Positions 10,878 through 64,000 of a stretch of DNA of 64,000 nt are shown piece by piece. A program made the position numbers and the translations under genes. This DNA is from an uncultured Candidatus Saccharibacteria bacterium (lineage in GTDB: Bacteria > Patescibacteriota > Minisyncoccia > Phycocordibacterales > DATDWN01). The stretch spans positions 12,688-76,687 of the forward strand of contig CAYMJQ010000002.1 of the NCBI GenBank assembly GCA_964391455.1, given 5' to 3'. Numbering within the stretch: the stretch's first letter is position 1; each line of letters opens with the position of its first letter. The notes beneath the pieces are model-generated. The model ran no database searches and was not told the origin of the DNA. It saw only the letters and a program-made list of their open reading frames with translations.

Positions 10878-10882
10878 TATGA

Positions 10883-13497: not shown

Positions 13498-13529
13498 TTT
13501 ATAAATCTTAACATGTTTTATTACTTGAT

Positions 13530-15182: not shown

Positions 15183-15189
15183 AGATTAA

Positions 15190-15975
15190 TTATACTAGGT
15201 TTTTTGTTATTTCTATCCATAAAGACATAGGTAAATCTTCAGCTCTTATCTTTGGATTTATTTTTAATTTATTAAAAACATTTTGTGCTTTTTCTTTTCC
15301 AAAAACAGAAGATATATTAGAAAACAATTGTTTTCTTTTGTGAGCAAACCCAGCATGAATTATTTGGAAAAAATTTTTTTCATCTATTTCTCTAAACTTA
15401 TTTTTTGAGATATTATCAATTTTTATTACAGCGGAGTCTACTTTTGGTGGTGGGCTAAAGGCGCCTCTTGGAACCTTTTTTATTATTTTAGGGTTTCCAA
15501 ATATTTTTACCGACAAAGACAAAAGACTTTCTTTTCCGTTTTTAGCCATAATTCTTTCAGCAACCTCTTTTTGCACCATAAGAATCATTTCTTTTGGTTG
15601 AAGATTTGTATCTAAAAATTTTCTTATTATTGACCCTGTTATGTAATATGGAATATTGGCTATAACTTTATATTTTTTAGTACCTAAATTTTTTTCTGAT
15701 ATTTCAAACTCCAGAATATCTTTTTGTATTATTTTTAGTTTTTTATTTTTAATATAATTTTCAAATTTTTTTTCTAATAAAGGTATAAGTCTGTGGTCTT
15801 TTTCTACAAGCAAAACATTATCTGATATTTTTAGTATTTCTTCGGTTAAAAATCCTTCACCTGGTCCTATTTCTAGTATAAGCTCATCTTTTTCTGGTTT
15901 ACCAGAAAGAACAACATCTTTTGCAATTGTTTTTGATTTAAGAAAATTTTGGCCAAGAGATTTTTTTTTAAACAT
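15190..15975 (-). CDS. rsmA: 16S rRNA (adenine1518/1519-N6)-dimethyltransferase
   Basis: KsgA family, with the N-terminal LGQNFL motif and a Rossmann-fold core. Confidence 0.85.
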   Translation of the reverse strand: MFKKKSLGQNFLKSKTIAKDVVLSGKPEKDELILEIGPGEGFLTEEILKISDNVLLVEKDHRLIPLLEKKFENYIKNKKLKIIQKDILEFEISEKNLGTKKYKVIANIPYYITGSIIRKFLDTNLQPKEMILMVQKEVAERIMAKNGKESLLSLSVKIFGNPKIIKKVPRGAFSPPPKVDSAVIKIDNISKNKFREIDEKNFFQIIHAGFAHKRKQLFSNISSVFGKEKAQNVFNKLKINPKIRAEDLPMSLWIEITKNLV

Positions 15976-15979
15976 AAAT

Positions 15980-17995
15980 TTAAAAATCTATACTAAATAA
16001 CGGAGATCTATTGCTGGATATTTCAGAATTTTCAGTTTGTAAATATTGTGAAGGTATATCTTCTAAAAATTCTGATGGAGAATTTATTTCCATATTCCCA
16101 AATATAGTACGTACTTTGGCATGGGTCAAATAAAGTTTTTTGCCAGCTCTTGTTATTGCCACATAAAACAACCTCCTTTCTTCCTCCGCGTCTTCTCCAG
16201 TTTTTTTGTTTCTATCCATTCTGTTGTGTGGAAATAGATCTGCTTCAAGACCACAAACAAAAACATATTGGAATTCTAGACCTTTAGAAGAGTGTACTGT
16301 CATTAATTTTACTCCATTTTTTTTGCCATCCAAAGAATCTTGATCTGATGCTAGTGCCGAATCAGTCAAGAAATTCTCTATACCAACTTCTTTATCATAA
16401 GAATCATATGATGTGGCCATAGTCACAAGTTCCATTATGTTCTCTAGTCTCTCGGTGTCCTCCTCTAAGCCTGTTTTATAGAAATCCTCCATACCAGAGT
16501 TTTTTATTATATATTTTATTGCTACAGAAGGAGGTTCTTTTAATAAAACATTCTTAAAATCACTTAACATTTTTCTAAAATTATTTATTTTTATCTGCAT
16601 GTTTACAGGCAATTCACCTTCTTTTCCTTGGAGTATTTTTTGTAAAGTTGTCTTTCCTATGCCTCTTGTCGGAACATTTATGATTCTTGCAAAATCACTA
16701 AGAGAGCTTTCATTTAAAGATGCTTTTATATAACTCAAACAATCTTTAATCTCTTTTCTTTCAAAAAATTTTGTTCCAAGCATTTGATACGGAACTGTAT
16801 TTGCAAGAAAAGCTTCTTCTAAAACACGAGATTGGAAGTTTGCTCTATATAAAACAGCTATTTCTTCTGGATTAACCCCGCTTTCTATAATTTCTTTTGA
16901 TTTATTAGCTATAAAATACGCTTCATCTATTTCACTTCTTCCTTCAAACAGACTTATTTTTTCACCGACTTCATTTAGTGTAAATAATTTTTTAGGAATT
17001 CTAAAATTATTTTTTTCTATTATTTTGTTTGCTACATCAAGAATATTTTTTGTAGATCTATAGTTTTGTTCTAGAAAAAATGTTTTTACCTCTGGAAAAA
17101 CTTTTTCAAAATGAAGCATATTTTTGATTTCAGCACCTCTCCAACTATAAATATTTTGATCTGTATCTCCTACAACACAAATATTTCTGTGTTTCTCTAC
17201 TAATAATTCTACTATGTTGTTTTGGACTTTATTTGTATCTTGGTATTCATCTACATGAACATACAAAAATCTTTTCTGATATTTACTCAATATATCAGGG
17301 TATTTTTTAAGAAGTTTTAAAGTTTTTAATAGTAAGTCATCAAAATCCAGTCCAGATTCTTTTTTTAACACTTCTTCATATTTTGACCATACTTTTTTTA
17401 CTAATTCTGAAGTTTGGTCATAAGACCCTCTTTCTAGATATTCACTTAAATTTACTCCCCTACTTTTTTCATTAGAAATAATATGACTTATTTTATCTAA
17501 ATGGTCTTTTGGTTCCAATCCAAGGTTTGATATTGCCTCTTTTATTACTTTTTTGGAATCTGATTTGTCAAAAATATTAAAATGTCTTGGGAGTTTTAGT
17601 AATTCTGCATTTTCTTTGATTATTTGTACGCCAAGGGAGTGAAAGGTGCTAACAAAAGGCAGTTTTTTTTGTGTTCCTAATAATATTGAGTTTTGTTTTA
17701 ACAAATCAACAACTCTTTCTTTCATTTCTCTCGCTGCTTTGTTGGTAAATGTTATAGCTAATATATTTTCTGGTTTTATACCACCAGCTATTATGTGTAG
17801 TATTCGGTGGGTGATAGTCTTGGTTTTTCCTGCTCCAGCTCCAGCCACTATTAAAACTGGACCATCTACTGTCATAACTGCATTTTTTTGTTCAGAATTA
17901 AGGGTTTTTAGATAATCCATTATTTTTAAATGAGGAATTTTGTTTTCTATTAAGATTTGATTATAGCATTTGTCTAAAACTCCATTTTGTATCAT
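15980..17995 (-). CDS. pcrA: UvrD/PcrA-family ATP-dependent DNA helicase
   Basis: Motif I VAGAGAGKTKTITHR, a 671-aa length and a typical SF1 helicase motif series. Confidence 0.85.
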   Translation of the reverse strand: MIQNGVLDKCYNQILIENKIPHLKIMDYLKTLNSEQKNAVMTVDGPVLIVAGAGAGKTKTITHRILHIIAGGIKPENILAITFTNKAAREMKERVVDLLKQNSILLGTQKKLPFVSTFHSLGVQIIKENAELLKLPRHFNIFDKSDSKKVIKEAISNLGLEPKDHLDKISHIISNEKSRGVNLSEYLERGSYDQTSELVKKVWSKYEEVLKKESGLDFDDLLLKTLKLLKKYPDILSKYQKRFLYVHVDEYQDTNKVQNNIVELLVEKHRNICVVGDTDQNIYSWRGAEIKNMLHFEKVFPEVKTFFLEQNYRSTKNILDVANKIIEKNNFRIPKKLFTLNEVGEKISLFEGRSEIDEAYFIANKSKEIIESGVNPEEIAVLYRANFQSRVLEEAFLANTVPYQMLGTKFFERKEIKDCLSYIKASLNESSLSDFARIINVPTRGIGKTTLQKILQGKEGELPVNMQIKINNFRKMLSDFKNVLLKEPPSVAIKYIIKNSGMEDFYKTGLEEDTERLENIMELVTMATSYDSYDKEVGIENFLTDSALASDQDSLDGKKNGVKLMTVHSSKGLEFQYVFVCGLEADLFPHNRMDRNKKTGEDAEEERRLFYVAITRAGKKLYLTHAKVRTIFGNMEINSPSEFLEDIPSQYLQTENSEISSNRSPLFSIDF

Positions 17996-23274: not shown

Positions 23275-23511
23275 ATGGCACAGGTGCAGCAGCTCGTTTT
23301 CGCCATCATGGTTATGTTTGTGGTGGCGACTGGGATTTCCGTCATGATTGGCGGGCTTCCCTTGGCTGGTCGACTCTGGAGGTCGGCCAGCAACCTGATC
23401 CGCCGACAGGTGGTCAGGTCTCTCGGATGGCTCTGGCGGAACTACCGCCGGGAAATCATTGGGTTCTGGGTGGGTGTTGCCACCACCCTGTTCGTTTTTG
23501 GACGCTTCTAG
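23275..23511 (+). CDS. GC-rich foreign-looking small membrane protein (78 aa, two TM helices, Arg-rich loop)
   Basis: An ATG lies 5 nt after the AGGAGGTG SD. The product is MAQVQQLVFAIMVMFVVATGISVMIGGLPLAGRLWRSASNLIRRQVVRSLGWLWRNYRREIIGFWVGVATTLFVFGRF. GC content is far above the flanks. A hairpin plus T-run overlaps the stop codon. The overlapping track ORF 23268..23543 is an alternative frame of the same GC-rich block. Confidence 0.5.
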   Translation: MAQVQQLVFAIMVMFVVATGISVMIGGLPLAGRLWRSASNLIRRQVVRSLGWLWRNYRREIIGFWVGVATTLFVFGRF

Positions 23512-25430: not shown

Positions 25431-25554
25431 TTATCCACAATATTTTTATAAAATGTCCTTTACATATTTTTATAAAAGACATAAACTTATTTCAGAACGC
25501 AGATTAAATGTCCGATACAATAAACCCTGTATTGGATTGACGTTCTGTAATAGT

Positions 25555-25785
25555 TCTTTTTTTTGGGAATCGGCCGAATTCCTCTCTTTTAGAAGACCCC
25601 CTGGTCTTCCCTGGGAAAGAGTGTAAACGAGCTCCTCACTATCTACTATATTTTTTTGAGCATTCGTTACTACCCCCTGCCCTAGTAAGTACTGGGTGGC
25701 CCTTCTCCAAACTACGCACATTTGTGCGCCCAACAGTCCCTAGATTTGCCTTCGTGAGATGGCTCTCTAATTGGGGCTGTTTTTT
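25555..25785. ncRNA. candidate structured small RNA in a GC-elevated convergent intergenic region (identity unresolved)
   Basis: A ~230-bp block is clearly richer in G+C than its surroundings. It lies between the 3' ends of xth and cca and has several local hairpins. Only spurious ORFs cover it. Confidence 0.25.
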
Positions 25786-27250
25786 ATTGTACGTAATGTT
25801 TTTTTCTAATTTTCTTTATTTCTATTTCATCCACTTCTTCCTTTATCATTTTCCCCTTTTCTCCTAATTCCCTTAATTTATTTTCTGGTAATTCCAACAT
25901 TTCTAAAGCTCTTTTTTCCATATATTCATCTGTGTTTTTACTAGGGTCCTCTAATACTTCTTCAAGAAGTGCGTGTAAAACAAAACCAACTTTCGGTCCA
26001 GGAGGAATTTTGCCTATTTCTATAATTTTTTTACCATCAATATTAAGCATTCCTACAGAAATCGGGTCACGGAGAGCTTCTTCAATCATTGAATGATATT
26101 TTCTGAGACGATAGGGGTCTTCTTTGGGTCTACCAGCTCCTATACGATCGCATATGCGTAGATTCATTAAATCCCATATATTTTCTCGTCCAACATTTAC
26201 AATCATTCTACGGACCGCAGAGAGCGTAATTTGCTCTGTGTCAGAGAAAAACATATGCCAGCGTATCATGGAAACAACTTTATCAATGATTTTTGTAGGA
26301 TATTTTAAATTTTCAAGAATTTTTTTAGTTTTTCTTGCTCCAAGAACTTCATGGCCAAAGAAAGTCCATTTTTTATTTTTCCCACCACCTCTTCTTGTTT
26401 CTGGTTTAGAAATATCATGAAAAAGTGCAGAAAGCCTTATTTCTAAAGGGTAATTTTTATCAGCTGAATGCTGTAGTGATCTAAGTAAGTGCTCCCAAAC
26501 ATCATAAGCATGTACTCCCCCTTGTTCCACCCCTACGGTTTCTAGTAGTTCAGGTGAAATATACTCTAGTAAGTTAAGTTTTTTAAGCATCAAAAGTCCC
26601 TTCATTGGGTTATCTGACATTACTATTCTAGTGAATTCATCTCTTATTCTTTCCTTTGATATATTTTTTAACAAAGATGAGCTTTCTAACATAGCTTTTT
26701 CAGTTTCTGGATGAATTTCAAAACTTAACTCAACAGAAAGTCTAATTCCCCTAATTATTCTAAGTCCATCTTCATTAAATCTTGATACAGGATCTCCTAC
26801 AGTTCTTATTAATTTGTCTTTTAAATCTTTTTCTCCACCATAAAGGTCAATAAATTCATTTTTAGATGTCGAATAGGCTAACGCATTCACAGTGAAATCT
26901 CTCCTTTTTAGGTCATCTTCTATTTTTTGGCTAAAAATAACGTTATTAGGATGCCTATTATCCAAATACTCCCCTTCTAATCTATACGGAGTTACCTCTA
27001 CCACTTTCAATGTTTCTTTTTCTACATTTTCATTTACAACTCCTACTGTACCAAAGGTATTTTCATAAAAAGTATTTGGGAACGAGGCTATTATCTGTTC
27101 TGGATTAGCATTTGTTGTTATATCCCAATCCTTCGGTTCCCTATCAAGCATAAGATCTCTCACGCAACCACCAACAAGAAAAGCTTCAAAGCCTTCTTTT
27201 TCTAGTTTTTTCGTTATGTTAGTTATTTCTTTTGGAATATTTAGTTTCAT
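25784..27250 (-). CDS. cca: CCA-adding tRNA nucleotidyltransferase / poly(A) polymerase family with HD domain
   Basis: An N-terminal GGCVRDLMLDREPKDWDITT nucleotidyltransferase head and a C-terminal HD domain. Confidence 0.8.
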   Translation of the reverse strand: MKLNIPKEITNITKKLEKEGFEAFLVGGCVRDLMLDREPKDWDITTNANPEQIIASFPNTFYENTFGTVGVVNENVEKETLKVVEVTPYRLEGEYLDNRHPNNVIFSQKIEDDLKRRDFTVNALAYSTSKNEFIDLYGGEKDLKDKLIRTVGDPVSRFNEDGLRIIRGIRLSVELSFEIHPETEKAMLESSSLLKNISKERIRDEFTRIVMSDNPMKGLLMLKKLNLLEYISPELLETVGVEQGGVHAYDVWEHLLRSLQHSADKNYPLEIRLSALFHDISKPETRRGGGKNKKWTFFGHEVLGARKTKKILENLKYPTKIIDKVVSMIRWHMFFSDTEQITLSAVRRMIVNVGRENIWDLMNLRICDRIGAGRPKEDPYRLRKYHSMIEEALRDPISVGMLNIDGKKIIEIGKIPPGPKVGFVLHALLEEVLEDPSKNTDEYMEKRALEMLELPENKLRELGEKGKMIKEEVDEIEIKKIRKKHYVQ

Positions 27251-28255: not shown

Positions 28256-28645
28256 TTGTATAATTTAGATATGAAGGAATGTCGTTATTGTAAAAATAAA
28301 TATCCTGAGTCACATTTTGGAGTAGCACTCACCACTAAAGATAAAATTTATTATAGACATAAGTGTAAGTTTTGTTATCAAGAAACAAAAAAGAAGCTTC
28401 GAAGAAAGAATCAAGATTGGTTTCTTAATTTTAAGAAAAAGGGAAGGTGTAAATTATGTGGTAATAGTGATTATAGAGTTCTAGAGTTTCATCATTTATA
28501 TGAGAAGGATAAAGATTTTTCAATTGCTTATATGAGGAATAATAGTTTTAGTTTGGATAAAATGAGGCAAGAAATAAAAAAGTGTGCTATATTATGTGCT
28601 AATTGTCACAGGATTACACATTGGGAGAAAAACAGTTGGCAATAA
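28256..28645 (+). CDS. HNH endonuclease
   Basis: A Cys-rich 129-aa protein with the motifs EFHH…N…CANCHRITH. Confidence 0.65.
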   Translation: MYNLDMKECRYCKNKYPESHFGVALTTKDKIYYRHKCKFCYQETKKKLRRKNQDWFLNFKKKGRCKLCGNSDYRVLEFHHLYEKDKDFSIAYMRNNSFSLDKMRQEIKKCAILCANCHRITHWEKNSWQ

Positions 28646-28646
28646 A

Positions 28647-28718
28647 CGGAGTGTAGTGAAACGGCTATCATACCTGTTTTGGGAACAGGCGATCCGAGTT
28701 CGAATCTCGGCACTCCGA
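28647..28718 (+). tRNA. tRNA-Pro (anticodon UGG)
   Basis: cggagtg-ta-gtga…cctgt-tttggga-acagg-cgat-ccgag-ttcgaat-ctcgg-cactccg-a. It is 72 nt with a C1:G72 pair. It starts 2 nt after the HNH stop. Confidence 0.85.
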
Positions 28719-28783
28719 CAAGAGTTTTATGATAAACCGCCGACCTCACAAAGTGAGATTCGGCGGTTTGGTGGTAAGGTGTG

Positions 28784-28906
28784 CTAGGTGACTATCCCAG
28801 CATACCATTTTCCGGTTCGTCGCTTCCTGTTTGCAAATCGGTTTTTCCACTTGGCGTACTGAACGCCAGCGAAAAAAGCGATTACAAAAAGAACAATTTC
28901 TGTCAT
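28784..28906 (-). CDS. GC-rich 40-aa hydrophobic peptide with basic tail (type I toxin-like), SD-preceded
   Basis: My minus-strand translation is MTEIVLFVIAFFAGVQYAKWKNRFANRKRRTGKWYAGIVT. It is preceded by GGAGGG and 5 nt. It lies in a GC-rich structured block right after tRNA-Pro. Confidence 0.4.
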   Translation of the reverse strand: MTEIVLFVIAFFAGVQYAKWKNRFANRKRRTGKWYAGIVT

Positions 28907-28970
28907 TTTTCCCTCCATAAAAAATAGTACAACATATACTTTTTTTGTCAAAATATGTTATATTTCTAAA

Positions 28971-30400: not shown

Positions 30401-30470
30401 TTTATGATTATAACATTAAGAAAAAAATAATTGCTGTAAACTGTTTTCTTTGGTAAGATACTCTTTAATT

Positions 30471-30541
30471 GCGGGATTAGTTTAGTGGTAGAATGACTGC
30501 CTTCCAAGCAGTATACACCAGTTCGATTCTGGTATCCCGCA
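30471..30541 (+). tRNA. tRNA-Gly (anticodon UCC)
   Basis: gcgggat-ta-gttt-agtggta-gaat-g-actgc-cttccaa-gcagt-atac-accag-ttcgatt-ctggt-atcccgc-a. It is 71 nt and very similar to bacterial tRNA-Gly(UCC). Confidence 0.85.
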
Positions 30542-30735
30542 CAAAATAAAATCCCCGAATGGGGATTTTATGTTGAGGATACCAGAATCGAACTAGATAG
30601 AGTTCGGGAAAGAAAGTCTTTCCCGTGGAGGAAGGCAACGAGCGGAGCGAGTGTTGGAAAACCGAGGGTTTCCAAGGAGTGAGATATCTGGTATCCCGCA
30701 CACGAGAAGCCCGAAAGGGCTTTTTATTGTGTGTG
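30542..30735. repeat. tRNA-Gly 3'-end-derived direct and inverted repeats framing a GC-rich structured element, with flanking terminator hairpins
   Basis: The 15-nt direct repeat ctggtatcccgcaca occurs at the tRNA 3' end and again at about 30684. An inverted near-copy of the T-arm and acceptor (gaggataccagaatcgaact) lies at about 30574. Hairpin plus T-run terminators sit at 30549-30572 and 30705-30730. Confidence 0.45.
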
Positions 30736-31273
30736 GAATAAGCAAAACATTGTTTTGCGTCCAGAATCGAAAGACGGAGCGGGTACCAGTTCAGCAGAAC
30801 TGGTCGTGAGTCGAGGTTGTTCTCTACAGTTTCATTTATTGTGTTATAATTTGGTAATTGTGAATACAATTACCTCCGGTCAAAAGTTTTTTTATAATTT
30901 AATTGCTAATGTAGTTTTTCTACTGCATTTATTTCTGGTTTTGGTGGTTTGTATTGGTTGGGCTTTTCCTTCTTTGTTTTATCTATTTTTATTTCTACTT
31001 TCAATAACAGCTCTTTCTGAAATTTTTCTAGGATATTGTATTTTAACTAAGTGGGAATTTAGTTTAAGAAAAAAAATTGATCCAAGTAGACAATTTGATA
31101 CATCATGCATATTTCATTATGGTAGAGCCATGTTCGGATTAGGACCAAGGGTTCCAACTAATAAAAAAGAAGCCGGATTTTTCAAAAAGTATTCATCACT
31201 TCTAGTGTTACTACTACCTTTATTAGGAGCTATTCTGGTTAAGTTTGGGCCAGGGACTTTACAAAATTTTTGA
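30731..31273 (+). CDS. small polytopic membrane protein resembling DUF2784 (C-x-LT-x-WE motif); N-terminus uncertain
   Basis: The C-terminal two-thirds (…LHLFLVLVVCIGWAF…SEIFLGYCILTKWEFSLRKK…) looks like a real membrane protein. The track start overlaps the tRNA-derived element, so the true start is probably an internal GTG or TTG (30806 or 30860). An extended -10 tgtgttataat lies at about 30841. Confidence 0.4.
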   Translation: MWNKQNIVLRPESKDGAGTSSAELVVSRGCSLQFHLLCYNLVIVNTITSGQKFFYNLIANVVFLLHLFLVLVVCIGWAFPSLFYLFLFLLSITALSEIFLGYCILTKWEFSLRKKIDPSRQFDTSCIFHYGRAMFGLGPRVPTNKKEAGFFKKYSSLLVLLLPLLGAILVKFGPGTLQNF

Positions 31274-31284
31274 TAGGAGTAATA

Positions 31285-31452
31285 TTTAACACGGAGGTTC
31301 ATCGGGGTCTAGCCACTGTGCTCAAGTCCACGCTAAGTGAAAACTGGTCCGGATTTTCCGGATAAAGGACCACAATAAATGTGGACTCGCGGTGCACTTG
31401 CACCCCAAAGAACACCGGCTGAGAGTTGCTTCGGCAGCTCTCAGCCTTTTAT
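31285..31452 (+). ncRNA. candidate structured RNA / elaborate 3'UTR ending in a UUCG-loop terminator
   Basis: A GC-elevated block with nested stems (agtccac…gtggact enclosing ggtccgg…ggacc). It ends in the ggctgagagttgc-ttcg-gcagctctcagcc hairpin plus T-run (31417-31452). A second, bidirectional terminator follows. Confidence 0.25.
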
Positions 31453-31457
31453 ATTAT

Positions 31458-31487
31458 CAAAAAACACCTTGTTACAAGGTGTTTTTT
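31458..31487. terminator. bidirectional intrinsic terminator (A-run, hairpin aacaccttg/caaggtgtt, T-run) ending hup
   Basis: The sequence aaaaaacaccttgttacaaggtgttttttg is visible. Confidence 0.55.
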
Positions 31488-31534
31488 GATTTCTTCTAGA
31501 AAAAATCAGACATCTGTGTCAGATTTAAGAACTT

Positions 31535-47943: not shown

Positions 47944-49080
47944 ATGAAATATCTCAGTGATTTAACAGAAAAAGATTTGAAAGGTAAGTATGTATTATTA
48001 AGACTTGATTTAAATGTTCCAATTATAAATGGAGAAGTTACAGATACATTTAGATTAGATAGGGTTATAGAAACAATTGATTTTTTAAGACAAAATAAAG
48101 CCAGAACGATCATCATTTCTCATATAGAAAGTGGTGATAAAACTCTTGTTCCTGTCTGGCACTACTTAAACGGGTTTTTCCCATTAGAATTTTCACCTAC
48201 ATATTTTACAGCAGAAGCTATTGATAAGATTTCAAAACTTGAAGACAAAGGAGTGATACTTTTTGAAAATCTTAGAGTAAATCAAGGGGAGAAAGAAAAT
48301 GATGAAGAATTTGCTAAAAAGTTAAGTCAGATGGCAGAGATTTATGTTAATGATGCTTTTGCAGTTTCTCACAGAAAGCACGCCTCTATTGTGGGGGTTT
48401 CAAAATTTTTACCTTCATATGCGGGATTACTTTTAAAACAAGAAATTGAACATTTGGGAAAAGCTTTTAATCCAGAGCATCCATTTTTATTTGTACTTGG
48501 TGGCGCAAAGTTTGAAACCAAAATGCCTCTTATTAAAAAATTTTTAGATAAAGCAAATAAAATTTTTTTGGCAGGGGCTTTAGCAAATAATATTTTCAAA
48601 GAGAGAGGTTTAGAATTGGGGACATCTTTGGTTTCGGAAACTAAAGCAGATCTTGGTGAGCTATCTAATAATGATAAAGTCATTACTCCAATAGATGTAA
48701 CAGTCACCAACTCAAAAGGTGAGGTGTTAAATAGAAAAACAAATGAAATAAAAAATGATGAGTGTATAGTTGATATAGGCACTGAAACCATAAAACAATT
48801 AGAAAATATTTTAAATGGTACAAAAACTATTTTATGGAATGGTCCTTTGGGTAACTATGAATTAGGTTTTCAGGATAAAACAGAAGTTTTGGCAAAGATG
48901 GTGGCTGATTTAACAAAAAAAGAAGGAATAACTTCTATAGTGGGTGGTGGAGACACTATTGCTTCTATAAACAAACTTGGTCTAAATAATGATTTTACTT
49001 TTATTTCCACTGGTGGAGGAGCGATGTTGGATTACTTGGTCAATGAGACTCTCCCTGGAATTGATGTTTTAAATAAGTAG
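47944..49080 (+). CDS. pgk: phosphoglycerate kinase
   Basis: A PGK fold sequence reading …RLDLNVP…GGGA…; 378 aa. Confidence 0.9.
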   Translation: MKYLSDLTEKDLKGKYVLLRLDLNVPIINGEVTDTFRLDRVIETIDFLRQNKARTIIISHIESGDKTLVPVWHYLNGFFPLEFSPTYFTAEAIDKISKLEDKGVILFENLRVNQGEKENDEEFAKKLSQMAEIYVNDAFAVSHRKHASIVGVSKFLPSYAGLLLKQEIEHLGKAFNPEHPFLFVLGGAKFETKMPLIKKFLDKANKIFLAGALANNIFKERGLELGTSLVSETKADLGELSNNDKVITPIDVTVTNSKGEVLNRKTNEIKNDECIVDIGTETIKQLENILNGTKTILWNGPLGNYELGFQDKTEVLAKMVADLTKKEGITSIVGGGDTIASINKLGLNNDFTFISTGGGAMLDYLVNETLPGIDVLNK

Positions 49081-49174
49081 GTTATTGATTTATTTATATT
49101 TTACTTTATAGTTGTGGAAGGGTTCTTTGACTACCACCTGCCTGTGGCAGACTGGTAATTGTTAGGAGACTGCC

Positions 49175-49780
49175 ATGAGCACCTCATTTCGTCAGGTAGT
49201 GAAGATTGCGAATACTCTGGAAGAGAAAGGGCTAACACCCGAACTCATCCAGTCTGAGCTTTTGGGTAGGGGAATTCTCGCAGATATCGCCGAGGCGGTG
49301 GTTCTTGGAACTGTGCCTAATCGCCGAGAGTTTCAGAAGTTTCTCGGAATTTTACCACCCCCTATTCCTCTCCTCGTCGACTACACGATGAGCCTCACCA
49401 AGATGATCTCAGCAGGAAAGTACGACCGTAAGAACTCAAACGTGAATAACAAGAACTTTCCCCGCACCAAGTCGGGGAAGTTCACGGTGGAGGTAGAGCT
49501 TCTACAAATATATCGGCAAACCTATTCGGAGAGCGTTCTCGTCGAGATGTTGAAACTCGGTTTCCGTCCGGCGACTCTGGAAGAACTCCTCTCATTCGGA
49601 GTCACAAACCCAGAAGTTCAGAGAGAGTTCCCTGTGGTTGCTCTCGGATCATCCTGTGTTCTGGATGGCGTTCGCCACGTTCCGTACCTAAGTGGGGACA
49701 ATTTGGAGCGCGACCTTGACCTGGACTGGTTCGCCAGCTGCTGGGGTCGCGGTTATCAGTTCCTCGTCGTTCGCAAGTGA
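49175..49780 (+). CDS. GC-rich foreign-looking hypothetical protein (201 aa)
   Basis: It is preceded by an AGGAG SD 6 nt before the ATG and a palindrome ctgccTGTggcag. Its composition is strongly GC-shifted. A UUCG-tetraloop hairpin (cctcgagtgg-ttcg-ccactcgagg) follows the stop. I recognise no domain. Confidence 0.5.
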   Translation: MSTSFRQVVKIANTLEEKGLTPELIQSELLGRGILADIAEAVVLGTVPNRREFQKFLGILPPPIPLLVDYTMSLTKMISAGKYDRKNSNVNNKNFPRTKSGKFTVEVELLQIYRQTYSESVLVEMLKLGFRPATLEELLSFGVTNPEVQREFPVVALGSSCVLDGVRHVPYLSGDNLERDLDLDWFASCWGRGYQFLVVRK

Positions 49781-56096: not shown

Positions 56097-56136
56097 CATT
56101 TTTATAAAAGATATTAACATTTTTTTTGGAGGTAAG

Positions 56137-56334
56137 ATGAAGCACACCCTTCTTTGGGTTCGTGGTGGGGCGGAGGAAGTGGAACTTCCTTTTTCCGCTT
56201 CTCCGAGTGACGCGATGCCTCTGGCGAGGCGTCATGTTGAGAACTTGTCGCAGTCGACGGTGCCTTTGTCGAACTTCCGGCTTCGGATGCCGGATGGTCG
56301 CGAGGTGCCGATCGACCCCAAGAAGAAGCACTAG
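56137..56334 (+). CDS. GC-rich foreign-looking small protein (65 aa)
   Basis: A GGAGG SD 4 nt upstream. The product is MKHTLLWVRGGAEEVELPFSASPSDAMPLARRHVENLSQSTVPLSNFRLRMPDGREVPIDPKKKH. A perfect terminator follows. Confidence 0.4.
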   Translation: MKHTLLWVRGGAEEVELPFSASPSDAMPLARRHVENLSQSTVPLSNFRLRMPDGREVPIDPKKKH

Positions 56335-56350
56335 TACCAACTAGTGTAAA

Positions 56351-56388
56351 CAGCCAAATCCTGAAAACCAGGATTTGGCTGTTTTTTC
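56351..56388 (+). terminator. perfect intrinsic terminator
   Basis: The sequence cagccaaatcctg-aaaac-caggatttggctg is followed by tttttt. Confidence 0.7.
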
Positions 56389-56422
56389 TTTTTTTGTGTT
56401 ATATTGTTTTCCGGAGGATTTT

Positions 56423-56626
56423 ATGAGGGAAAATTGTTACGAGCTTCGCTGGCGGGTTGGTCAGGAGAAGATAAAGACGGGGTTTATGAATTTTTTTGGG
56501 GAGAAAGAAAAAGTTCTTCCTGAGGCAAGGGAAGTCGCCCAGAGGATTCATGGAAGAAATCCACTCATGAAGGATTTCTCTCTTCGAGGACCATGGGGAG
56601 AGGAAACTCCGATTTCTGTAAGCTAG
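56423..56626 (+). CDS. GC-shifted small protein (67 aa), second cistron of the cassette
   Basis: A GGAGGA SD 6 nt upstream. The product is MRENCYELRWRVGQEKIKTGFMNFFGEKEKVLPEAREVAQRIHGRNPLMKDFSLRGPWGEETPISVS. Confidence 0.4.
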   Translation: MRENCYELRWRVGQEKIKTGFMNFFGEKEKVLPEAREVAQRIHGRNPLMKDFSLRGPWGEETPISVS

Positions 56627-56632
56627 CTTTAG

Positions 56633-56671
56633 AAAACGACCGGACCATTTGTGTGGTTCCGGTCGTTTTTT
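56633..56671 (+). terminator. perfect intrinsic terminator
   Basis: The sequence aaaacgaccggaacc…ggttccggtcg is followed by ttttttc. Confidence 0.7.
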
Positions 56672-56692
56672 CATAGGTGATGTGTATTTTTA

Positions 56693-56727
56693 ATTTGGAA
56701 ACCAGTAGTTCGCCAAATTTGAGAATT
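56693..56727. repeat. partial inverted copy (D) of the dispersed repeat left arm
   Basis: ttcgccaaatttg is the reverse complement of the caaatttggcgaa start of copy A, and it sits next to aatttggaaacc. Confidence 0.35.
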
Positions 56728-57691: not shown

Positions 57692-58108
57692 ATGTCGACA
57701 ATAAATCAGTTGGTTAAAAGAAAAAGAAAGAATGTTAAAACAAAGCCAAAAGCTGTGGCTCTTACTCGTGGTTTTAATACTCTTAAAAATAGACCTGTAT
57801 TTTATCCTTCTTCTTTTAAAAGAGGTGTTTGCACAAAAGTAACAACAAAGACTCCTAAAAAACCTAACTCTGCTATTAGAAAAATTGCAAGAGTAAGACT
57901 TTCAAATGGTATGGAGGTTACTGCTTATATTCCAGGTATGGGGCACGGCTTACAGGAACACTCAGTGGTACTACTGAGAGGTGGAAAGGTAAAGGATGTC
58001 GGTATTCGTTACACTATAGTTAGAGGAGTTCTTGATGCTACTGGTGTAGAAAAAAGAATGAAAGGAAGGTCTCGATATGGTGCTAAAAGACCAAAAGCAG
58101 GTAAATAA
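57692..58108 (+). CDS. rpsL: 30S ribosomal protein S12
   Basis: [13 protein letters not shown]…, with the conserved PNSA(I/L)RK motif. I chose the start at the MSTINQ methionine, not the track's upstream ATG. Confidence 0.9.
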
Positions 58109-58120
58109 ATTTAAATAAAA

Positions 58121-58588
58121 ATGAGAAGAAAAGTTACAAACAGAAATATAGTGGGCAAGGATTTGGAATTCAACTCTGAAAAAGTTGGAAAGTTTATTAA
58201 CTATGTAATGTGGAGAGGTCAAAAAGAAACTGCAAGAGGCATTGTTTATGGTGCTTTTGAAAAAATAAAAGAAAAAACAGGTTCTGATCCTATGGAAGTT
58301 TTTGATACAGCTTTGAAGAATTCAGGCCCTCTAACTGAAGTTAGATCAAGAAGAGTTGGTGGTGCAAACTATCAAATACCTAGAGAAGTAAGACCAGAAA
58401 GAAGATCTTTTCTTGCTATGAAGTGGATAATAGGGGCAGCGAGAGAAGGTAAGGGAGCTTCTATGACTGATAGATTAGCTGATGAAATAATACTAGCTTC
58501 AAAAAACGAAGGTAAGGCAGTTAAGAAAAGAGAAGATACTCACAAGATGGCAGAGGCGAATAAGGCCTTCGCTCACTTCGCCTGGTAG
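58121..58588 (+). CDS. rpsG: 30S ribosomal protein S7
   Basis: [11 protein letters not shown]…[24 protein letters not shown]-like sequence; 155 aa. Confidence 0.9.
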   Translation: [155 protein letters not shown]

Positions 58589-58760
58589 TTTTTACTGTCT
58601 TTTTGCCGTACTCCTTTGTCGCAAACTCCGCTCGTTCTCGCGGAGTATTTTTATACACCTTGGTCACGATGCTCGTTTGCTTCGCGGATTACCGCAAAAA
58701 TCCTAGTAAAAACAAATCTTTACTTTTTTATTTTTTTTGGTAGTTTTCTTTTAGGAGGTG

Positions 58761-59114
58761 ATGATGAAAACCGAAATTGCAAGATTGCTTGAAGAAAAAA
58801 GGGTAGAGCGAGGGGAAACCAAAGGGGAGTTTAGTAAGTTCCTGGGTTTTTCTGTCTCTATGTATGATCAAGTTTTGAATGGCACAAGAACTCTGCCCAA
58901 GAAATACTCAGTTCGTGTGTCCGAAGTCATCAATATCCCGGCTGATCGAGTTATGTTTCTTTCAAAACTCGGTAGAAGGGCTTTGTTGTCTGACCATGAA
59001 ATTACGGGTGATGAGCTAAGGTATCTTGCTGGCATCGCAGATGCTGCAGGGTCTCCTGTCCGACTTTCTTTGCTTCTTGAACATCTGGAACATTATCCCA
59101 AAAGAACCACATGA
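58761..59114 (+). CDS. GC-shifted XRE-like helix-turn-helix protein inserted between rpsG and fusA
   Basis: An AGGAGGTG SD. The start is MMKTEIARLLEEKRVERGETKGEFSKFLGFSVSMYDQVLNGTRTLP…, with a predicted HTH at residues ~20-45. A terminator lies upstream (58636-58665) and downstream (59101-59134). Confidence 0.5.
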   Translation: MMKTEIARLLEEKRVERGETKGEFSKFLGFSVSMYDQVLNGTRTLPKKYSVRVSEVINIPADRVMFLSKLGRRALLSDHEITGDELRYLAGIADAAGSPVRLSLLLEHLEHYPKRTT

Positions 59115-59134
59115 ATATTGTGTGGTTCTTTTCG
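59101..59134 (+). terminator. intrinsic terminator
   Basis: The sequence aagaaccaca-tgaatat-tgtggttctt is followed by ttcgttt. Confidence 0.6.
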
Positions 59135-59228
59135 TTTGCTCAAAAGTGATTTTTGGTATATAGTTTTCGTTGAATTAGCCAAACGGCTTTTTTCTTTACT
59201 TTAGCAAAATTAACAATTAAAAATTATT

Positions 59229-61370
59229 ATGAATCGGGATTATACATTGGATAAAGTTAGAAACTTTGGAATCATTGCTCACATTGATGCTGGCAAGACA
59301 ACAACCTCTGAAAGAGTTCTTTTCTATACAGGAATGACTCACAAAATAGGTGAGGTGCATGAAGGAGAGACAGTTACAGATTGGATGGAACAAGAAAGAG
59401 AAAGAGGTATCACTATTACTGCTGCCGCTATTACTTGTTTCTGGAATCCTACATATATGCCAAAGGGGGCAAAACCAGAATACCGTTTTAATATTATTGA
59501 TACTCCTGGTCACATAGACTTTACAGCTGAAGTAAAGAGAAGTTTGAGAGTTCTAGACGGTGCGGTTGTGGTTTTTGATGGTGTTGCTGGAGTAGAGCCA
59601 CAATCAGAAACAAACTGGAGATATGCAGATGATGGAAATGTACCAAGAATTTGTTTTATAAATAAACTAGATAGAACGGGGGCGTCTTTTGAAAGATCAT
59701 ATGCTTCTATTTTAGACAGACTTACAAAAAATGCAGTTAGAGTCCAGATCCCTATTGGTCTTGAAGATAAATTTGAAGGAGTTATTGACCTTTTGAAAAT
59801 GAAGGCTTTCTACTTTGAGGGGAATATGGGTATGAATATTAAAGAGGATGAAATCCCAGCAGAATACTTAGATGAAGCTAAAAAATATAGAGCAGAGCTT
59901 GTTGAAAAAATAGTTGAGCATGATGATGAGCTTATGACAGCTTATCTTGACGGAAAAGAACCTTCACTAGAAGATATGAAAAAAACTCTAAGAAAGGCGA
60001 CTTTGGCGGTTAAACTAGTTCCGGTTTTTGCTGGTTCAGCTTTAAAAAACAAGGGAGTTCAATTGGTTTTGGATGGTGTGGTAGATTACTTGCCTTCACC
60101 TATAGATATTCCTCCTGTTCACGGTGTTGATCCAAAAACAAATGAAGAAATATATAGAAAATCTTCTGATACAGAACCATTTGCAGCTCTTGCTTTCAAA
60201 CTTCAAAACGATCCATTCGTAGGACAGCTCACTTTCTTTAGAGTTTATTCTGGGACTATTGAGGCTGGTACATATGTATATAACGCTACTACTGGCGAGA
60301 AAGAGCGTCTAGGAAGAATTGTAAGACTCCAAGCTGATAAAAGAGAAGAGGTTAAAAAAGTTTTTGCTGGTGAGATTGCTGCAGCTGTAGGTTTAAAATC
60401 TGCTAAAACATCTCACACTTTATGTGATGAAAATAATCCTATAATTCTCGATCCTATTAAATTCGTTGCTCCTGTGGTTTCTTTGCGTGTTGAACCAAAA
60501 ACAAAAGCAGACCAAGAGAAAATGGGTATGGCTCTTAAAAAACTTTCTGATGAAGATCCAACTTTCGTTATTTCTTCAAACAATGAAACAGGAGAATCTA
60601 TAATTTCTGGTATGGGTGAACTTCATCTTGAAATTATGGTTGATCGTATGAAAAGAGAATTTGGTGTAGATGTAAATGTAGGCAAGCCTCAGGTTGCTTA
60701 TAGAGAAACTATTTTGGGTGAAGCTGAGGCAGAACATAAATACATAAAACAAACTGGTGGTAAGGGACAATATGGTCACGTAAAACTTACAATCAAACCA
60801 ATGCAACCTTTAGTGGAGGGTGAAAAGATTCCAAAAAATGTTAAGAGATATGAGGATTTTGAATTTATCGACAATATTAAAGGAGGTGTTATCCCACAAG
60901 AATTTATACCTGCTGTTGAGAAGGGAGTTTATGAAGCAATGGAGAGAGGGATTGTTGCTGGTTACAAAATGGTAAATGTTTCTTGCGATTTAACTTTTGG
61001 TTCATACCATGATGTCGACTCATCTGAAATCGCTTACAAAATTGCAGCATCTCAAGCTTTTCAAGAGGCTGCCAAAAAAGCTAGACCTGTTATCTTAGAG
61101 CCTATTATGAAAGTTGAAGCAATAATGCCAGAACAATTCATGGGTGATGTTACAGGTTCACTATCTGGAAAGAGAGGGCAAATAGAAGGGATGGCAGAAA
61201 GAGGAATGCTTAGAGTTATTCATGCAAAAGTTCCACTGTCTGAAATGTTTGGTTATACAACAGATATTCGTTCTATGACACAAGGAAGAGGAAGTGTGCA
61301 AATGGAGTTTGATCATTATGAAGTGGTACCACCAAACGTTGAGAAGCAAATTGTAGAAAGTAGAAAATAA
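59229..61370 (+). CDS. fusA: translation elongation factor G
   Basis: [15 protein letters not shown]…, the DTPGHIDF motif, the full five-domain architecture and a 713-aa length. Confidence 0.95.
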
Positions 61371-61373
61371 AAA

Positions 61374-61407
61374 ACAAAACCTCACAAAAGTGAGGTTTTG
61401 TTTTTTT
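61374..61407 (+). terminator. intrinsic terminator after fusA
   Basis: The sequence aaaacctcac-aaaa-gtgaggtttt is followed by gttttttt. Confidence 0.65.
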
Positions 61408-61476
61408 ATTCACATTTTATCCAGATATTTCTATAAATTATTTGATAGTAATTCTTCTACAAGATATAATGTATCT

Positions 61477-64000
61477 ATGAGTATTTCTACTTCTGAAAGT
61501 AATTTTCTAAATACTGATAAAAAAAACACAGGAACTTCTAATCAAGATTTTATTGATTTACCATTGAATATTCCTGATGATAAAAGTAAGGGTTATGTTG
61601 GCTATCTTGATATTTTACATAGACAACTAGATGATGAAGAAAAAAGAAAATTAGATAATAAACCTAGTCCTGTTGAAAGTGTTTCTGGAGATCAAGGTAA
61701 TCCGGAAAATAAAAATGATTTAGATTTGGAAGGTGGAGTTGTAGAAGCAATGAATGAAGGAAATTTTGATCTTGCGCTGGATTTAGTAAATAAAATAGAA
61801 AGTGAAGAAGTGTTACATAGGGTAGTAGAAAAAGTAGTAGAACAACTTGTAAAAGAGAAAGAATTTTCTGTTGCAAAAAAGTTTCTTCGAACAATTCACA
61901 ATATGGATTTTTATAATCAACAACTCAGTATTGTTTTAGAAAATCAAAGAGTTTATTTGGATCAAGGAAATGATGGATCTGCAGAAGCTGTTTCAGGTGA
62001 TGATGAAGAAGTTGCAAATAAGGTTGAAATAAAAAAACCAGAACAAGTTGAAAATAAAATAGAACCAGATTTAAAAACAGAAGTCATTTCTGATGATGAT
62101 TATGAAAATTTTGTAAAAACAGGTGATGTTCCGGGTGATGTACTTGTAAATATTGCAAATAGAATAGCAAACACGGGGTCAATTACAGATAGAGAAAGAG
62201 CCATATATGAAATTTATGGAGAGAAAATCGAACAATTACTTAGAAACAGAAAGGGAGAATCTACTCCGGATGATGAAGTTCTGGATAGCTCCATTAATTC
62301 AGCAAGTGGTTTAGAAAACCCTCCAGAGCAAGAAAAAATAAAATTAAATCCAGATGAATCTAGTTCAGGTATTCAAGATATAAAAGATGCAACAATAGCT
62401 CCTGCTCCAGAAAATATTCCTAATTCAAATGAAGAAATCGATGCAAACCTTGAAAAAGCTAGAAGCGAATACGCCAATCAGTTGGTTATTTGGAAAAATA
62501 GTATAAGAGAAAAAAAGAGTAAATTCAGAAAAGTTTTGCAAGATTTGGGTGTAGATAAGCAACTCCCACCAGAAGAAGAACCAGTTGAACTAGTTGAAGC
62601 GAGAAGACTCTATATAGAAGCAAAAAAGGCAAAAAACAAAGACTTAATTGGAGTTATTTTTGATGTGCCTAATCAAAGTCAAAAGCCTTTAGGTATTGCT
62701 GTAGAAGAAATGAATTCTAAAAAAGAACAACTCCTATCTTCTATAGAGTCTGAAAATTCAGAATTAGAAAAAAGATTGATGGAGAATATTCCTCCTCTAG
62801 AAAGAGGTATTTTGGGTAAGGCCTTTGATAAATGGAGAGCGATGCCTCGCTATCAGAGAATAGCTATAAGCTCCAGTCTTGCTTTTACTGCTGGTCTTGC
62901 TTCAGGTCTTGGTTTAGGAAGTGCAGCTGTATATGGAGGTATGAGGGCTGGTAGGGCGGTAGCTGGGGCGGTTTTGTCACAAGGCGCTGGTAAAACACTC
63001 GATACTTTTTATGGCAAGAAAAATAGAGATAACAAAGACCAAGTTTTTGAAAATTATGCAAAACAAATAAATTTGGATAATTTCGAACAGAAAGAAAAAG
63101 AAATGATGGCTTTTCTTGACAAACAAAAAGATGAAAGAAAAAGACAAATATTAAAAAAAGGCTTGGTAATGGCTGCTGTTGCTGGAGCAAGTAATTTGGG
63201 TGTTGGGGGTGGAGGAGGGACAGATATTCCTGATAACATAAATCCAACTCCAGGTGTATCTGGGTCAATAGGCAATACTGTTGAAAACACTGGTGTGACT
63301 TCTGATTTGATGGAAAAACCAGAAGTACTAGACGCAAAATCTAATCTAGATAATTTAGTGGAATCGAAATCTCCCGTTTTAAATGAATCACCTGGTATTT
63401 TAGAGACAAAAGTAGAACTTTCTTCTAAAGGTTTTATTCAGGATATGCATAATTTGAAAGCAAATATTTTAGCAGAATACGGTGGAGAGCCTCCAGAGAC
63501 TTTAAATCAAATAATGAATAAAACTCCTATTGAACTTGCAAAAGCTTTTCATTTTTATGATCCAGAAACAAATGCTACTGGATTAGGTTTTAAGGGTGAG
63601 TCTATTGGTTTGGATAGCACAGGTAATGTTTACTATGAACATTTAGATGGTACGAAGCAAATTATTTTCGATGCAAAAACCGGAGAATTTCACCATTTTG
63701 ATGGTGAAATGGTTGTGAAAAATGCTCCAGATGTACAGTTATACCCAAATGGAAAAATTGGTGATGATATAACTCCTGTAAATTTTGAGAAAAACCCTTC
63801 ATTAGAAGATCCATTTTCTGTAAACAGATCAAATGTTAGTTTTATACCACAAGATGTAGTAAGTCAGACCGATTTACCAGAGAAAGTTAATATTTCTTAT
63901 GAAGAGCCTTTGGTAACAAACACAGATCTTCGCCCAGAAGAAGTTTTGATGAATACTGAATCAGTATTGAAGGAGGCAAGTGTTCCACCTTTGCGCCATA
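61477..64000 (+). CDS. very large hypothetical protein (>840 aa, runs off window end), acidic and low-complexity with two Gly/Ala-rich hydrophobic segments
   Basis: Reading this frame from the ATG at 61477 to the window end, I found no stop codon. It is not in the ORF track because it is open-ended. It contains …SSLAFTAGLASGLGLGSAAVYGGMRAGRAVAGAVL… and …GLVMAAVAGASNLGVGGGGG…. Confidence 0.5.
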   Translation, partial: MSISTSESNFLNTDKKNTGTSNQDFIDLPLNIPDDKSKGYVGYLDILHRQLDDEEKRKLDNKPSPVESVSGDQGNPENKNDLDLEGGVVEAMNEGNFDLALDLVNKIESEEVLHRVVEKVVEQLVKEKEFSVAKKFLRTIHNMDFYNQQLSIVLENQRVYLDQGNDGSAEAVSGDDEEVANKVEIKKPEQVENKIEPDLKTEVISDDDYENFVKTGDVPGDVLVNIANRIANTGSITDRERAIYEIYGEKIEQLLRNRKGESTPDDEVLDSSINSASGLENPPEQEKIKLNPDESSSGIQDIKDATIAPAPENIPNSNEEIDANLEKARSEYANQLVIWKNSIREKKSKFRKVLQDLGVDKQLPPEEEPVELVEARRLYIEAKKAKNKDLIGVIFDVPNQSQKPLGIAVEEMNSKKEQLLSSIESENSELEKRLMENIPPLERGILGKAFDKWRAMPRYQRIAISSSLAFTAGLASGLGLGSAAVYGGMRAGRAVAGAVLSQGAGKTLDTFYGKKNRDNKDQVFENYAKQINLDNFEQKEKEMMAFLDKQKDERKRQILKKGLVMAAVAGASNLGVGGGGGTDIPDNINPTPGVSGSIGNTVENTGVTSDLMEKPEVLDAKSNLDNLVESKSPVLNESPGILETKVELSSKGFIQDMHNLKANILAEYGGEPPETLNQIMNKTPIELAKAFHFYDPETNATGLGFKGESIGLDSTGNVYYEHLDGTKQIIFDAKTGEFHHFDGEMVVKNAPDVQLYPNGKIGDDITPVNFEKNPSLEDPFSVNRSNVSFIPQDVVSQTDLPEKVNISYEEPLVTNTDLRPEEVLMNTESVLKEASVPPLRH

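Follow-up and report, generated by a model that had tools for sequence, protein, structure and literature searches.

What occupies the space between rpsG and fusA in an uncultured CPR (Patescibacteria) bacterium, and how did it come to lie there? In the window analyzed here, an AT-rich stretch of 64,000 nucleotides (GC 0.33) to whose positions all coordinates refer, a 640-bp spacer separates the genes for ribosomal protein S7 and EF-G. The first-pass annotation had described this spacer as the site of an XRE-like helix-turn-helix (HTH) gene, with its own Shine-Dalgarno (SD) sequence and terminators, inserted into the str operon. In order, the spacer holds a 125-nt hairpin with an inner terminator, a promoter-like element, an SD sequence, a 116-aa ORF, a second hairpin, a promoter-like block, and an AU-rich stretch devoid of an SD sequence that leads to the ATG of fusA. 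The features are collected in Table 1. With a probability of roughly 70%, we read the spacer as a single autonomous, monocistronic HTH unit that encodes a two-domain Cro/CI factor and is an old, vertically inherited resident of an open junction.

Table 1. Features of the rpsL-fusA region, with window positions, strand, and evidence or properties. The sister genome is GCA_964453075.1.
rpsL (ribosomal protein S12)	57692-58108	+	Pfam Ribosom_S12_S23, E = 7e-31; no SD sequence
rpsG (ribosomal protein S7)	58121-58588	+	Pfam Ribosomal_S7, E = 9e-58; 85% identity to S7 of the sister genome; no SD sequence
Extended imperfect hairpin of ~125 nt, from the rpsG stop codon	58588-58713	+	MFE -40.5 kcal/mol, z -6.7
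First terminator-like hairpin ACTCCGC/GCGGAGT (58625-58646), then ATTTTTATAC	58625-58656	+	terminator scan
Promoter-like element of the HTH gene: TTTACT, 16 nt, TGgTAGTTT (extended -10)	58719-58746	+	read from the sequence; putative function
SD sequence AGGAGGT	58753-58759	+	4 nt to the ATG at 58764 (5 nt from the GGAGG core)
HTH gene, 116 aa, two-domain XRE (Cro/CI-type) protein	58764-59114	+	orthologue, family, profile, and AlphaFold2 evidence
Second terminator hairpin, spanning the stop codon of the HTH gene	59100-59132	+	12 perfect pairs (15 in the MFE fold), -16.6 kcal/mol, z -4.9
Conserved fusA-proximal block TTTTTGGTATATAGTTTT (59150-59167; TATAGT as putative -10), then AGCC/GGCT stem and T-run	59150-59194	+	alignment with the sister genome
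fusA (EF-G), 713 aa	59229-61370	+	90% identity to EF-G of the sister genome; no SD sequence
Strong terminator of fusA	61369-61406	+	terminator scan

Open-frame calling gave an ORF with a GTG start at 58758-59114, which corresponds to the 118 residues of the first-pass annotation. The orthologues begin with MK(T/S)E, so the start was placed at the ATG and the protein shortened to 116 aa. A word-indexed search of 5.8 billion proteins returned the protein itself and one relative only. This relative, also of 116 aa and 72% identical without gaps, is encoded in the same slot of GCA_964453075.1 (locus L001, hereafter the sister genome), where the gene order is L28, M50 peptidase, rpsL, rpsG, HTH gene, and fusA. 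The fusA assignment is based on the Pfam domains GTP_EFTU, EFG_III, EFG_IV, and EFG_C in the EF-G of that genome. There, the HTH gene is followed by two extra small ORFs, which match no Pfam, PHROG, or PADLOC family, and then by the conserved fusA-proximal block. The third homologue, P0003, is 47% identical and follows L28-M50-rpsL-rpsG; it is preceded by an extra 80-aa ORF and followed by a response-regulator receiver gene. With two DNA sequences of the locus at hand, the conservation arguments made here amount to a single comparison. Between these two, the HTH ORF has a pN of 0.164 and a pS of 0.91 (synonymous sites saturated), and 11 neighboring gene pairs are near saturation, differing at 49-69% of four-fold sites. 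The identity of the HTH proteins is mid-range for neighboring host genes (54-90%). With these values the ORF behaves as would a vertically inherited gene under purifying selection, and as judged by this comparison of sequences the ORF is a real, conserved gene.

Against Pfam HTH_3 (PF01381), the window protein scored 19.4 bits (E = 1.1e-3; cut-off 23). HMMER, run exhaustively over 1.8 billion cluster representatives, yielded 46 matches, about 25 of them full-length (111-129 aa). The family members stem from metagenomes and Patescibacteria MAGs and, where named at all, are called "XRE-family HTH." HTH_3 was matched by 11 of 24 members (E <= 0.01), at best with 4.2e-9, and the family profile recognized lambda cI (2.9e-5) and the 434 repressor (5.8e-5). 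The XRE-type assignment is thus clear at the level of the family profile, but the single sequence remains below the cut-off.

An AlphaFold2 model computed with the family alignment (pLDDT 89) comprises a five-helix DNA-binding domain (residues 4-69), a flexible linker (residues 70-81), and a two-helix module (residues 82-110). The predicted fold of the first domain is that of lambda repressor, five helices with the HTH at helices 2-3, and the modeled helices at residues 20-27 and 31-39 coincide with the HTH stretch quoted in the first-pass annotation. Conserved positions in the family form the motif LLExKRxxLGETKxxFAKxLG...Y.Q...G.R..P.K in the N-terminal part and eeLRYLAxIAeAAGxPLxLSLLLxHL in the C-terminal part. 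For the C-terminal module, no relative was found in the PDB, in Pfam (24 members, E <= 0.01), or in NCBIfam; a match of its profile to a DARPin in the PDB (E = 0.41) was dismissed as chance. PHROGs, PADLOC, and NCBIfam gave generic HTH matches only, and the window protein itself matched no NCBIfam model. A metagenome scan with a six-member alignment, the 24-member one being too diverse, produced 97 pattern matches, none of which was confirmed.

Profile and fold evidence together place the protein in the Cro/CI (XRE) class, with a C-terminal extension specific to its family. Dimerization, repressor activity, and targets we infer by analogy: the protein is most likely an autonomous dimeric repressor and most likely binds DNA via helices 2-3 (residues 20-39). 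The C-terminal helical hairpin is the obvious candidate for, and most likely is, the dimer or partner interface.

The DNA on both sides of the ORF was then read for signals. None of 200 shuffled sequences was as stable as the 125-nt hairpin that begins at the rpsG stop codon, and a hairpin of other sequence occupies the same position in the sister genome (-45.8 kcal/mol, z -6.9). The hairpin of the window probably forms the 3' end of the rpsL-rpsG transcript. Inside it sits the first terminator of the first-pass annotation, which the terminator scan recovered; with AUUUUUAUAC, this shorter hairpin has a free energy of -12.2 kcal/mol (z -3.5). Its U-tract is weak, and the 125-nt rod is a competing fold. 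The terminator at the apex of the hairpin in the sister genome is stronger (-25 kcal/mol). The second terminator is likewise present. It was missed by the scan, in which loops were limited to 3-8 nt, and was seen as a 12-nt perfect inverted repeat. An A-run before it and its U-rich 3' arm give this hairpin a bidirectional look, with the U-run lying partly within the arm. It is retained in the sister genome through two compensatory pair changes (AGAACCACA/TGTGGTTCT versus AGAACTACG/CGTAGTTCT). Both predicted structures, 58625-58646 and 59100-59132, combine a GC-rich hairpin with a direct U-tract, as is expected of intrinsic terminators.

In front of the HTH gene, the sister genome retains the 10-mer TGGTAGTTTT together with a TTGACA-type -35, despite the divergence of the surrounding spacer. 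AGGAGG is kept there too, and also wherever the DNA upstream of other family members was inspected. In front of fusA, window and sister genome have in common the exact 13-mer GTATATAGTTTT and GCC..GGCTTTTTT (GCC..GGC-T6). Conservation of this 13-nt block and of the leader, in a genome otherwise at synonymous saturation, indicates that fusA very probably has its own promoter. The AGCC/GGCT stem of the leader is conserved in position but thermodynamically not significant (z -0.7), and therefore no attenuator is claimed. Searched with Rfam at gathering thresholds, the whole window contained four tRNAs and no other family; at permissive settings, the best sub-threshold match within 58500-59300 reached 28 bits against a cut-off of 60, and no family covered the spacer structures. 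Since every described element of the spacer is present, the observation is confirmed, the only corrections being the start codon and the longer structure that encloses the first hairpin.

Does the HTH protein act on the gene that follows it? A dedicated regulator of fusA or of translation genes would bind the fusA promoter or leader and tune EF-G, and its family would have been recruited repeatedly beside translation genes. In the window the HTH gene lies directly upstream of fusA, and the homologue of the third lineage follows rpsG. Family members are also located ~40 bp after alaS in another Patescibacteria lineage (three contigs, apparently one lineage). Moreover, TGGTA(TATA)GTTTT is common to the promoters of the HTH gene and of fusA in both genomes. 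This motif, however, is not palindromic, sequences differing from it by one mismatch are no more frequent in the window than expected by chance, and it may simply represent the two -10 regions; an operator search detected no conserved palindrome near either promoter. Regulation of fusA is for these reasons treated here as a possibility. The wider contexts also argue against a dedicated regulator. The rpsG and alaS neighborhoods represent two independent lineages only, and other members are found before smc, beside a YafQ-like pair (L086), or beside unrelated genes, so that the family contexts, as far as the sequences tell, point to no single partner. Even at the locus itself the gene is parted from fusA by two ORFs in the sister genome and followed by the response-regulator gene in P0003. 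We regard a dedicated fusA regulator as unlikely.

It is also quite improbable that the protein represents a HigA-like orphan antitoxin, left over from a type II toxin-antitoxin module that had entered the junction, and kept as a transcription factor or anti-addiction gene. Such an origin would accord with the uncharacterized 80-aa ORF in front of the P0003 homologue and with the toxin-antitoxin pairs in loci of relatives, RelB/RelE-like in L009 (read from translations) and YafQ-like in L086. No toxin-sized ORF adjoins the gene in the window, however, where the 175 bp upstream are taken up by the hairpin and the promoter, and the small neighboring ORFs of the sister genome belong to none of the families searched. 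At ~40 bp, the interval between alaS and the linked members is too short for a toxin ORF, and next downstream, in two of the three alaS-linked contigs (L084 and L089), lies a gene of an uncharacterized 367-aa family. The NCBIfam model of HigA (TIGR02607) matches one of 24 members (E = 0.004). Purifying selection across saturation-level divergence argues for a function of the protein's own.

The history of the junction was followed in a set of 80 loci fetched with an S7 query. The first-pass annotation had stated that rpsG and fusA are normally adjacent, and the gap is indeed ~16-60 bp in most non-CPR bacteria of the set. The nearest GTDB species representatives (S7 identity 64-68%) lack the HTH gene, and none has the order rpsG-HTH gene-fusA. 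Among these species only L005 has a compact junction, of 10 bp. Unrelated genes fill rpsG-fusA gaps of 2.2-3.6 kb in L004 (four minus-strand ORFs of 179-360 aa, enzyme-like when the translations are inspected by eye), L006 (a 1079-aa repeat protein), and L008 (three genes), whereas rpsG is followed by secY in L007 and by obg in L009. With variable cargo, secY, or obg after rpsG in the nearest species, the split of the operon is clade-wide. A terminator stands just after rpsG in L001, L004, L006, and L009. Ahead of fusA, L001, L006, and L008 have a TATAGT box, and in L001 and L006 a small stem or hairpin with a T-run comes next; L004 has only a small hairpin and T-run upstream of fusA. Between terminator and promoter lies a slot whose cargo varies, and in this lineage the HTH gene has long been that cargo.

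These comparisons change how the insertion is to be understood. The proposed uncoupling of fusA from the S12/S7 transcript agrees with the very probable fusA promoter, but the break is a property of the clade and was not caused by the HTH gene. By the evidence of the two sequences, the gene predates the split between the window genome and GCA_964453075.1 and is no fresh insertion. The term "inserted" is apt only in part, and then for the distant past; a recent or lineage-private event is contradicted by the 72% orthologue in the same slot, the 47% relative, and the lack of mobile marks. The first-pass annotation had made its claim depend on str synteny and composition in related genomes, and here the outcome is divided: the HTH gene is conserved in relatives, but its composition is host-like in neither genome. 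A junction that is open between rpsG and fusA and collects unrelated cargo is relevant wherever synteny of ribosomal loci is used in the binning or phylogeny of CPR bacteria.

The GC shift of the ORF was reproduced. The HTH ORF has a GC content of 0.433 and a GC3 of 0.368, compared with a GC3 of 0.21 +/- 0.03 (maximum 0.28) in 52 host-like genes of the window (z = 5.6); in the sister genome the values are 0.48 for the HTH gene and ~0.30 for the host. In the window, a canonical SD sequence precedes each of the five small GC-rich ORFs, the HTH gene included, compared with 0-2 of the 52 genes of host type (Fisher p = 2e-7 to 5e-6); in the sister genome the counts are all three GC-rich ORFs versus 0 of 17. 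In many host genes of both genomes, just 6-10 nt separate a TATAAT-like box from the ATG. Family members elsewhere have strong SD sequences and reside on contigs with a GC content of 0.45-0.56. The non-host GC3 and the SD sequence support an origin outside the lineage. A signature that persists despite synonymous saturation is not predicted by a simple ancient acquisition followed by amelioration, which leaves room for repeated replacement or special selection. If general, a GC-rich, SD-bearing minority of genes in an SD-less genome bears on translation initiation and on gene acquisition in reduced symbionts. A more far-reaching interpretation joins two propositions: the HTH protein would be a lineage-specific factor wired to translation that controls fusA via the adjacent promoter or leader, and it would belong to a persistently GC-rich, SD-led class of small, self-terminated genes in an SD-less, apparently largely leaderless genome. 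We consider this combination doubtful, at long odds; if true, a CPR bacterium would possess a two-tier regime of translation initiation.

The unit was also inspected for traces of mobility. No transposase, integrase, or other recombinase gene was found, and no terminal repeats flank the unit. Two candidates for a target-site duplication, TGGTAGTTTT at 58583 and 58738 and TCGTTTGCT at 58673 and 59132, are at chance level, about one exact 9-10-mer repeat being expected by chance per 700 bp according to our own estimate. The copy of TGGTAGTTTT at 58738 is the -10 conserved in the sister genome, where the end of rpsG differs. A MITE or other repeat element was rejected, as neither the 125-nt palindrome nor its arm recurs within the window. 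An integron attC site was rejected too: the palindrome has ends that deviate from the core consensus GTTRRRY, and no integrase is present. Neither the scan of viral contigs nor tblastn against phages and plasmids revealed relatives of the HTH protein, and a phage or plasmid origin is thus unsupported. A recent horizontal or mobile, moron-like cassette of promoter, SD sequence, ORF, and terminator, inserted independently or repeatedly replaced at a hot spot, could account for the GC3 shift, the canonical SD sequence in genomes whose host genes lack it, the GC-richer contigs of other family members, and the different junction cargo in each relative, but it is very improbable given that position, orientation, length, promoter 10-mer, and terminator hairpin are the same in both genomes, that the divergence matches that of flanking host genes, that integrase and transposase genes are lacking and the 9-10-nt flanking direct repeats do not exceed chance, and that there are no extra copies in the window and no phage, plasmid, or viral homologues.

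For the autonomous HTH unit, the following course of events is proposed, in which we infer the boundaries of the transcripts. Acquisition of the HTH gene would predate the divergence of the window genome from GCA_964453075.1 and probably from the third lineage. The gene would have landed in a junction that, with its terminator and promoter, was open across the Patescibacteria clade, and would since have descended vertically under purifying selection. In the present locus, the rpsL-rpsG transcript would end in the long hairpin/terminator right past the rpsG stop codon. Transcription of the HTH gene would begin approximately at the SD sequence, driven by an extended -10 promoter of its own (TGgTAGTTT); translation would be initiated from this SD sequence, and transcription would terminate at the hairpin that spans the stop codon. 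fusA would be transcribed separately from a TATAGT-type promoter, with an AU-rich leader of ~60 nt that lacks an SD sequence. The HTH protein would probably repress its own promoter and possibly the neighboring one. Viewed as a whole, the gene is of an ordinary kind and its place, specific to the clade, is mildly unusual; current understanding is not overturned. To our knowledge, very few regulators are known in Patescibacteria, and the protein defines a small, previously unnamed family in which an HTH domain is joined to a C-terminal LRYLAxIAxAAG...LSLLL module.

Among characterized proteins, the N-terminal domain resembles the N-terminal domains of the phage 434 repressor and lambda cI, as well as P22 c2, being a five-helix bundle with the HTH at helices 2-3. 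In contrast to these Cro/CI phage repressors, the HTH gene is chromosomal and not part of a phage, the window sequence stays under the Pfam gathering score, and the protein adds a C-terminal two-helix module. In size and architecture it resembles SinR of Bacillus subtilis (111 aa) and DdrO of Deinococcus (~130 aa), in which an XRE domain and a linker precede a C-terminal part that is short and all-helical; 1b0n_A and 6jq1 appear in the Foldseek list as full-length matches, a likeness to SinR and DdrO that concerns layout only. The C-terminal part differs from that of SinR and DdrO in having neither sequence similarity nor a Pfam match, and oligomerization through it is presumed. SinR-type membership was judged by the SinR/SinI multimerization domain, which we take to be the Pfam SinI family, and by the neighborhood of the gene. 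It was not supported, given that the C-terminal part gave no Pfam match in 24 members and no small antagonist is a conserved neighbor; no gene for a SinI-like antagonist or an IrrE/ImmA-type protease was recognized next to the HTH gene in the window or in the sister genome. Unlike the antitoxins HigA and YbaQ, the HTH gene has no adjacent toxin gene, and the window protein does not match the HigA model. With the str operon (rpsL-rpsG-fusA-tuf), the locus shares the gene order, tuf lying further on. Contiguity, in contrast, is lost: a terminator, the HTH unit, and a promoter are interposed between rpsG and fusA, a separate terminator follows fusA, and tuf of the sister genome is parted from fusA by two genes, one of 982 aa and one of DUF5663. 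Unlike in the str operon, breaks between rpsG and fusA are the rule in the nearest species.

Genes across the whole window fell into two classes that were distinguished by GC3 and by the sequence upstream of the start codon. The host-like class comprised about 52 genes with a GC3 of about 0.21 and without a Shine-Dalgarno sequence. Many of them carried a TATAAT-like box 6-10 nt 5' of the ATG, which suggests that their mRNAs are leaderless or have a very short leader. The second class was a handful of mostly small, GC-rich ORFs with a GC3 of 0.37-0.73 and a canonical GGAGG 5-9 nt 5' of each start, for none of which a Pfam match was obtained. Where GC-rich ORFs were read in detail (those starting at 56137 and 56423 and the HTH gene between rpsG and fusA), each was accompanied by a terminator and a promoter-like box of its own. 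The sister-genome locus L001 showed this split as well: a Shine-Dalgarno sequence preceded 3/3 GC-rich ORFs versus 0/17 host-like genes. Coordinates are collected in the table.

Coordinates of the features described (nt; z, z-score of the hairpin)
Feature	Window	L001	Other loci
GC-rich ORFs with Shine-Dalgarno (window, examples)	23275-23511, 49175-49780, 56137-56334, 56423-56626, 58764-59114	7686-7868, 10001-10351, 10727-10972	
Second GC-rich island	56100-56700		
tpiA-HIT junction	47944-49780	686-692	
Further GC-rich patches (GC 0.49-0.57)	30446-30866, 28566-28940, 31196-31523, 25506-25811, 2856-3236, 10897-11801		
tRNA-Gly	30471-30542		
tRNA-Pro	28647-28719		
Post-rpsG hairpin	58588-58713 (z -6.7)	9786-9914 (z -6.9)	
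fusA-leader stem and T-run	59170-59194	11050-11075	L006 ~7795-7815; L004 ~7990-8010
Region 3' of fusA	61369-64000	13307-16556	
alaS-linked HTH gene and 367-aa protein			L084 3495-4598; L089 800-1036

In a second GC-rich island, flanked by an MBL-fold gene and rpmB, GC reached 0.585. Two small ORFs (65 and 67 aa) were arranged there in tandem; both had a Shine-Dalgarno sequence and a terminator, and the first was additionally preceded by a TTGACA-16-TAACAT box. The two products were weak paralogues of one another (28% identity, E=8e-6); they had no match in Pfam, PHROG, or PADLOC and no counterpart in L001. The corresponding place was occupied by a different GC-rich ORF of 60 aa in L001 and by ORFs of 73 and 77 aa on P0003, a contig from a third lineage.

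Between tpiA and a HIT-family gene, the window contained a 378-aa ORF, which by eye of its translation appears to be pgk, and a GC-rich 201-aa ORF with a Shine-Dalgarno sequence and without a Pfam match. In L001, tpiA and the HIT gene were directly adjacent. On sequence comparison, this difference is another indel with a GC-rich ORF. Additional GC-rich patches were present in the window, two of which were adjoined by tRNA genes (tRNA-Gly and tRNA-Pro); the patches might hold divergent structured RNAs below the Rfam gathering thresholds.

In both the window and L001, the rpsG stop codon marked the exact start of an imperfect hairpin some 125 nt long. The two hairpin sequences were almost unrelated except for ACTCCTTTGT toward the 5' side. 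No Rfam family was assigned to it, and no second copy was found within the window. The hairpin could be a 3'-end stabilizer, a terminator, or a protein-binding site.

The window, L001, and two loci of nearest relatives (L006 and L004) each had, about 35-50 nt 5' of the fusA start, a 4-bp GC stem with a T-run after it. The stem sequence varied (GCC/GGC, GCCC/GGGC, GACC/GGTC, and GCGC/GCGC), and the stem alone had no thermodynamic significance. A TATAGT box was located upstream of it in the window, L001, and L006; none was recognized upstream of the L004 stem. The stem and T-run might act as a 5' stabilizer or weak attenuator. The fusA and tuf genes were also apart in this lineage. In the window, the fusA terminator was followed by a long ORF from ~61478 that extended past the window end, and the L001 interval between fusA and tuf encoded a 982-aa protein without a Pfam match and a DUF5663 protein.

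In another Patescibacteria lineage (L084 and L089), the HTH family gene was situated between alaS and the gene for a conserved 367-aa protein. The latter was without a Pfam match; by eye, its N terminus (VLIDIGSSxVGGA) looks like that of the actin/FtsA-type ATPase fold.
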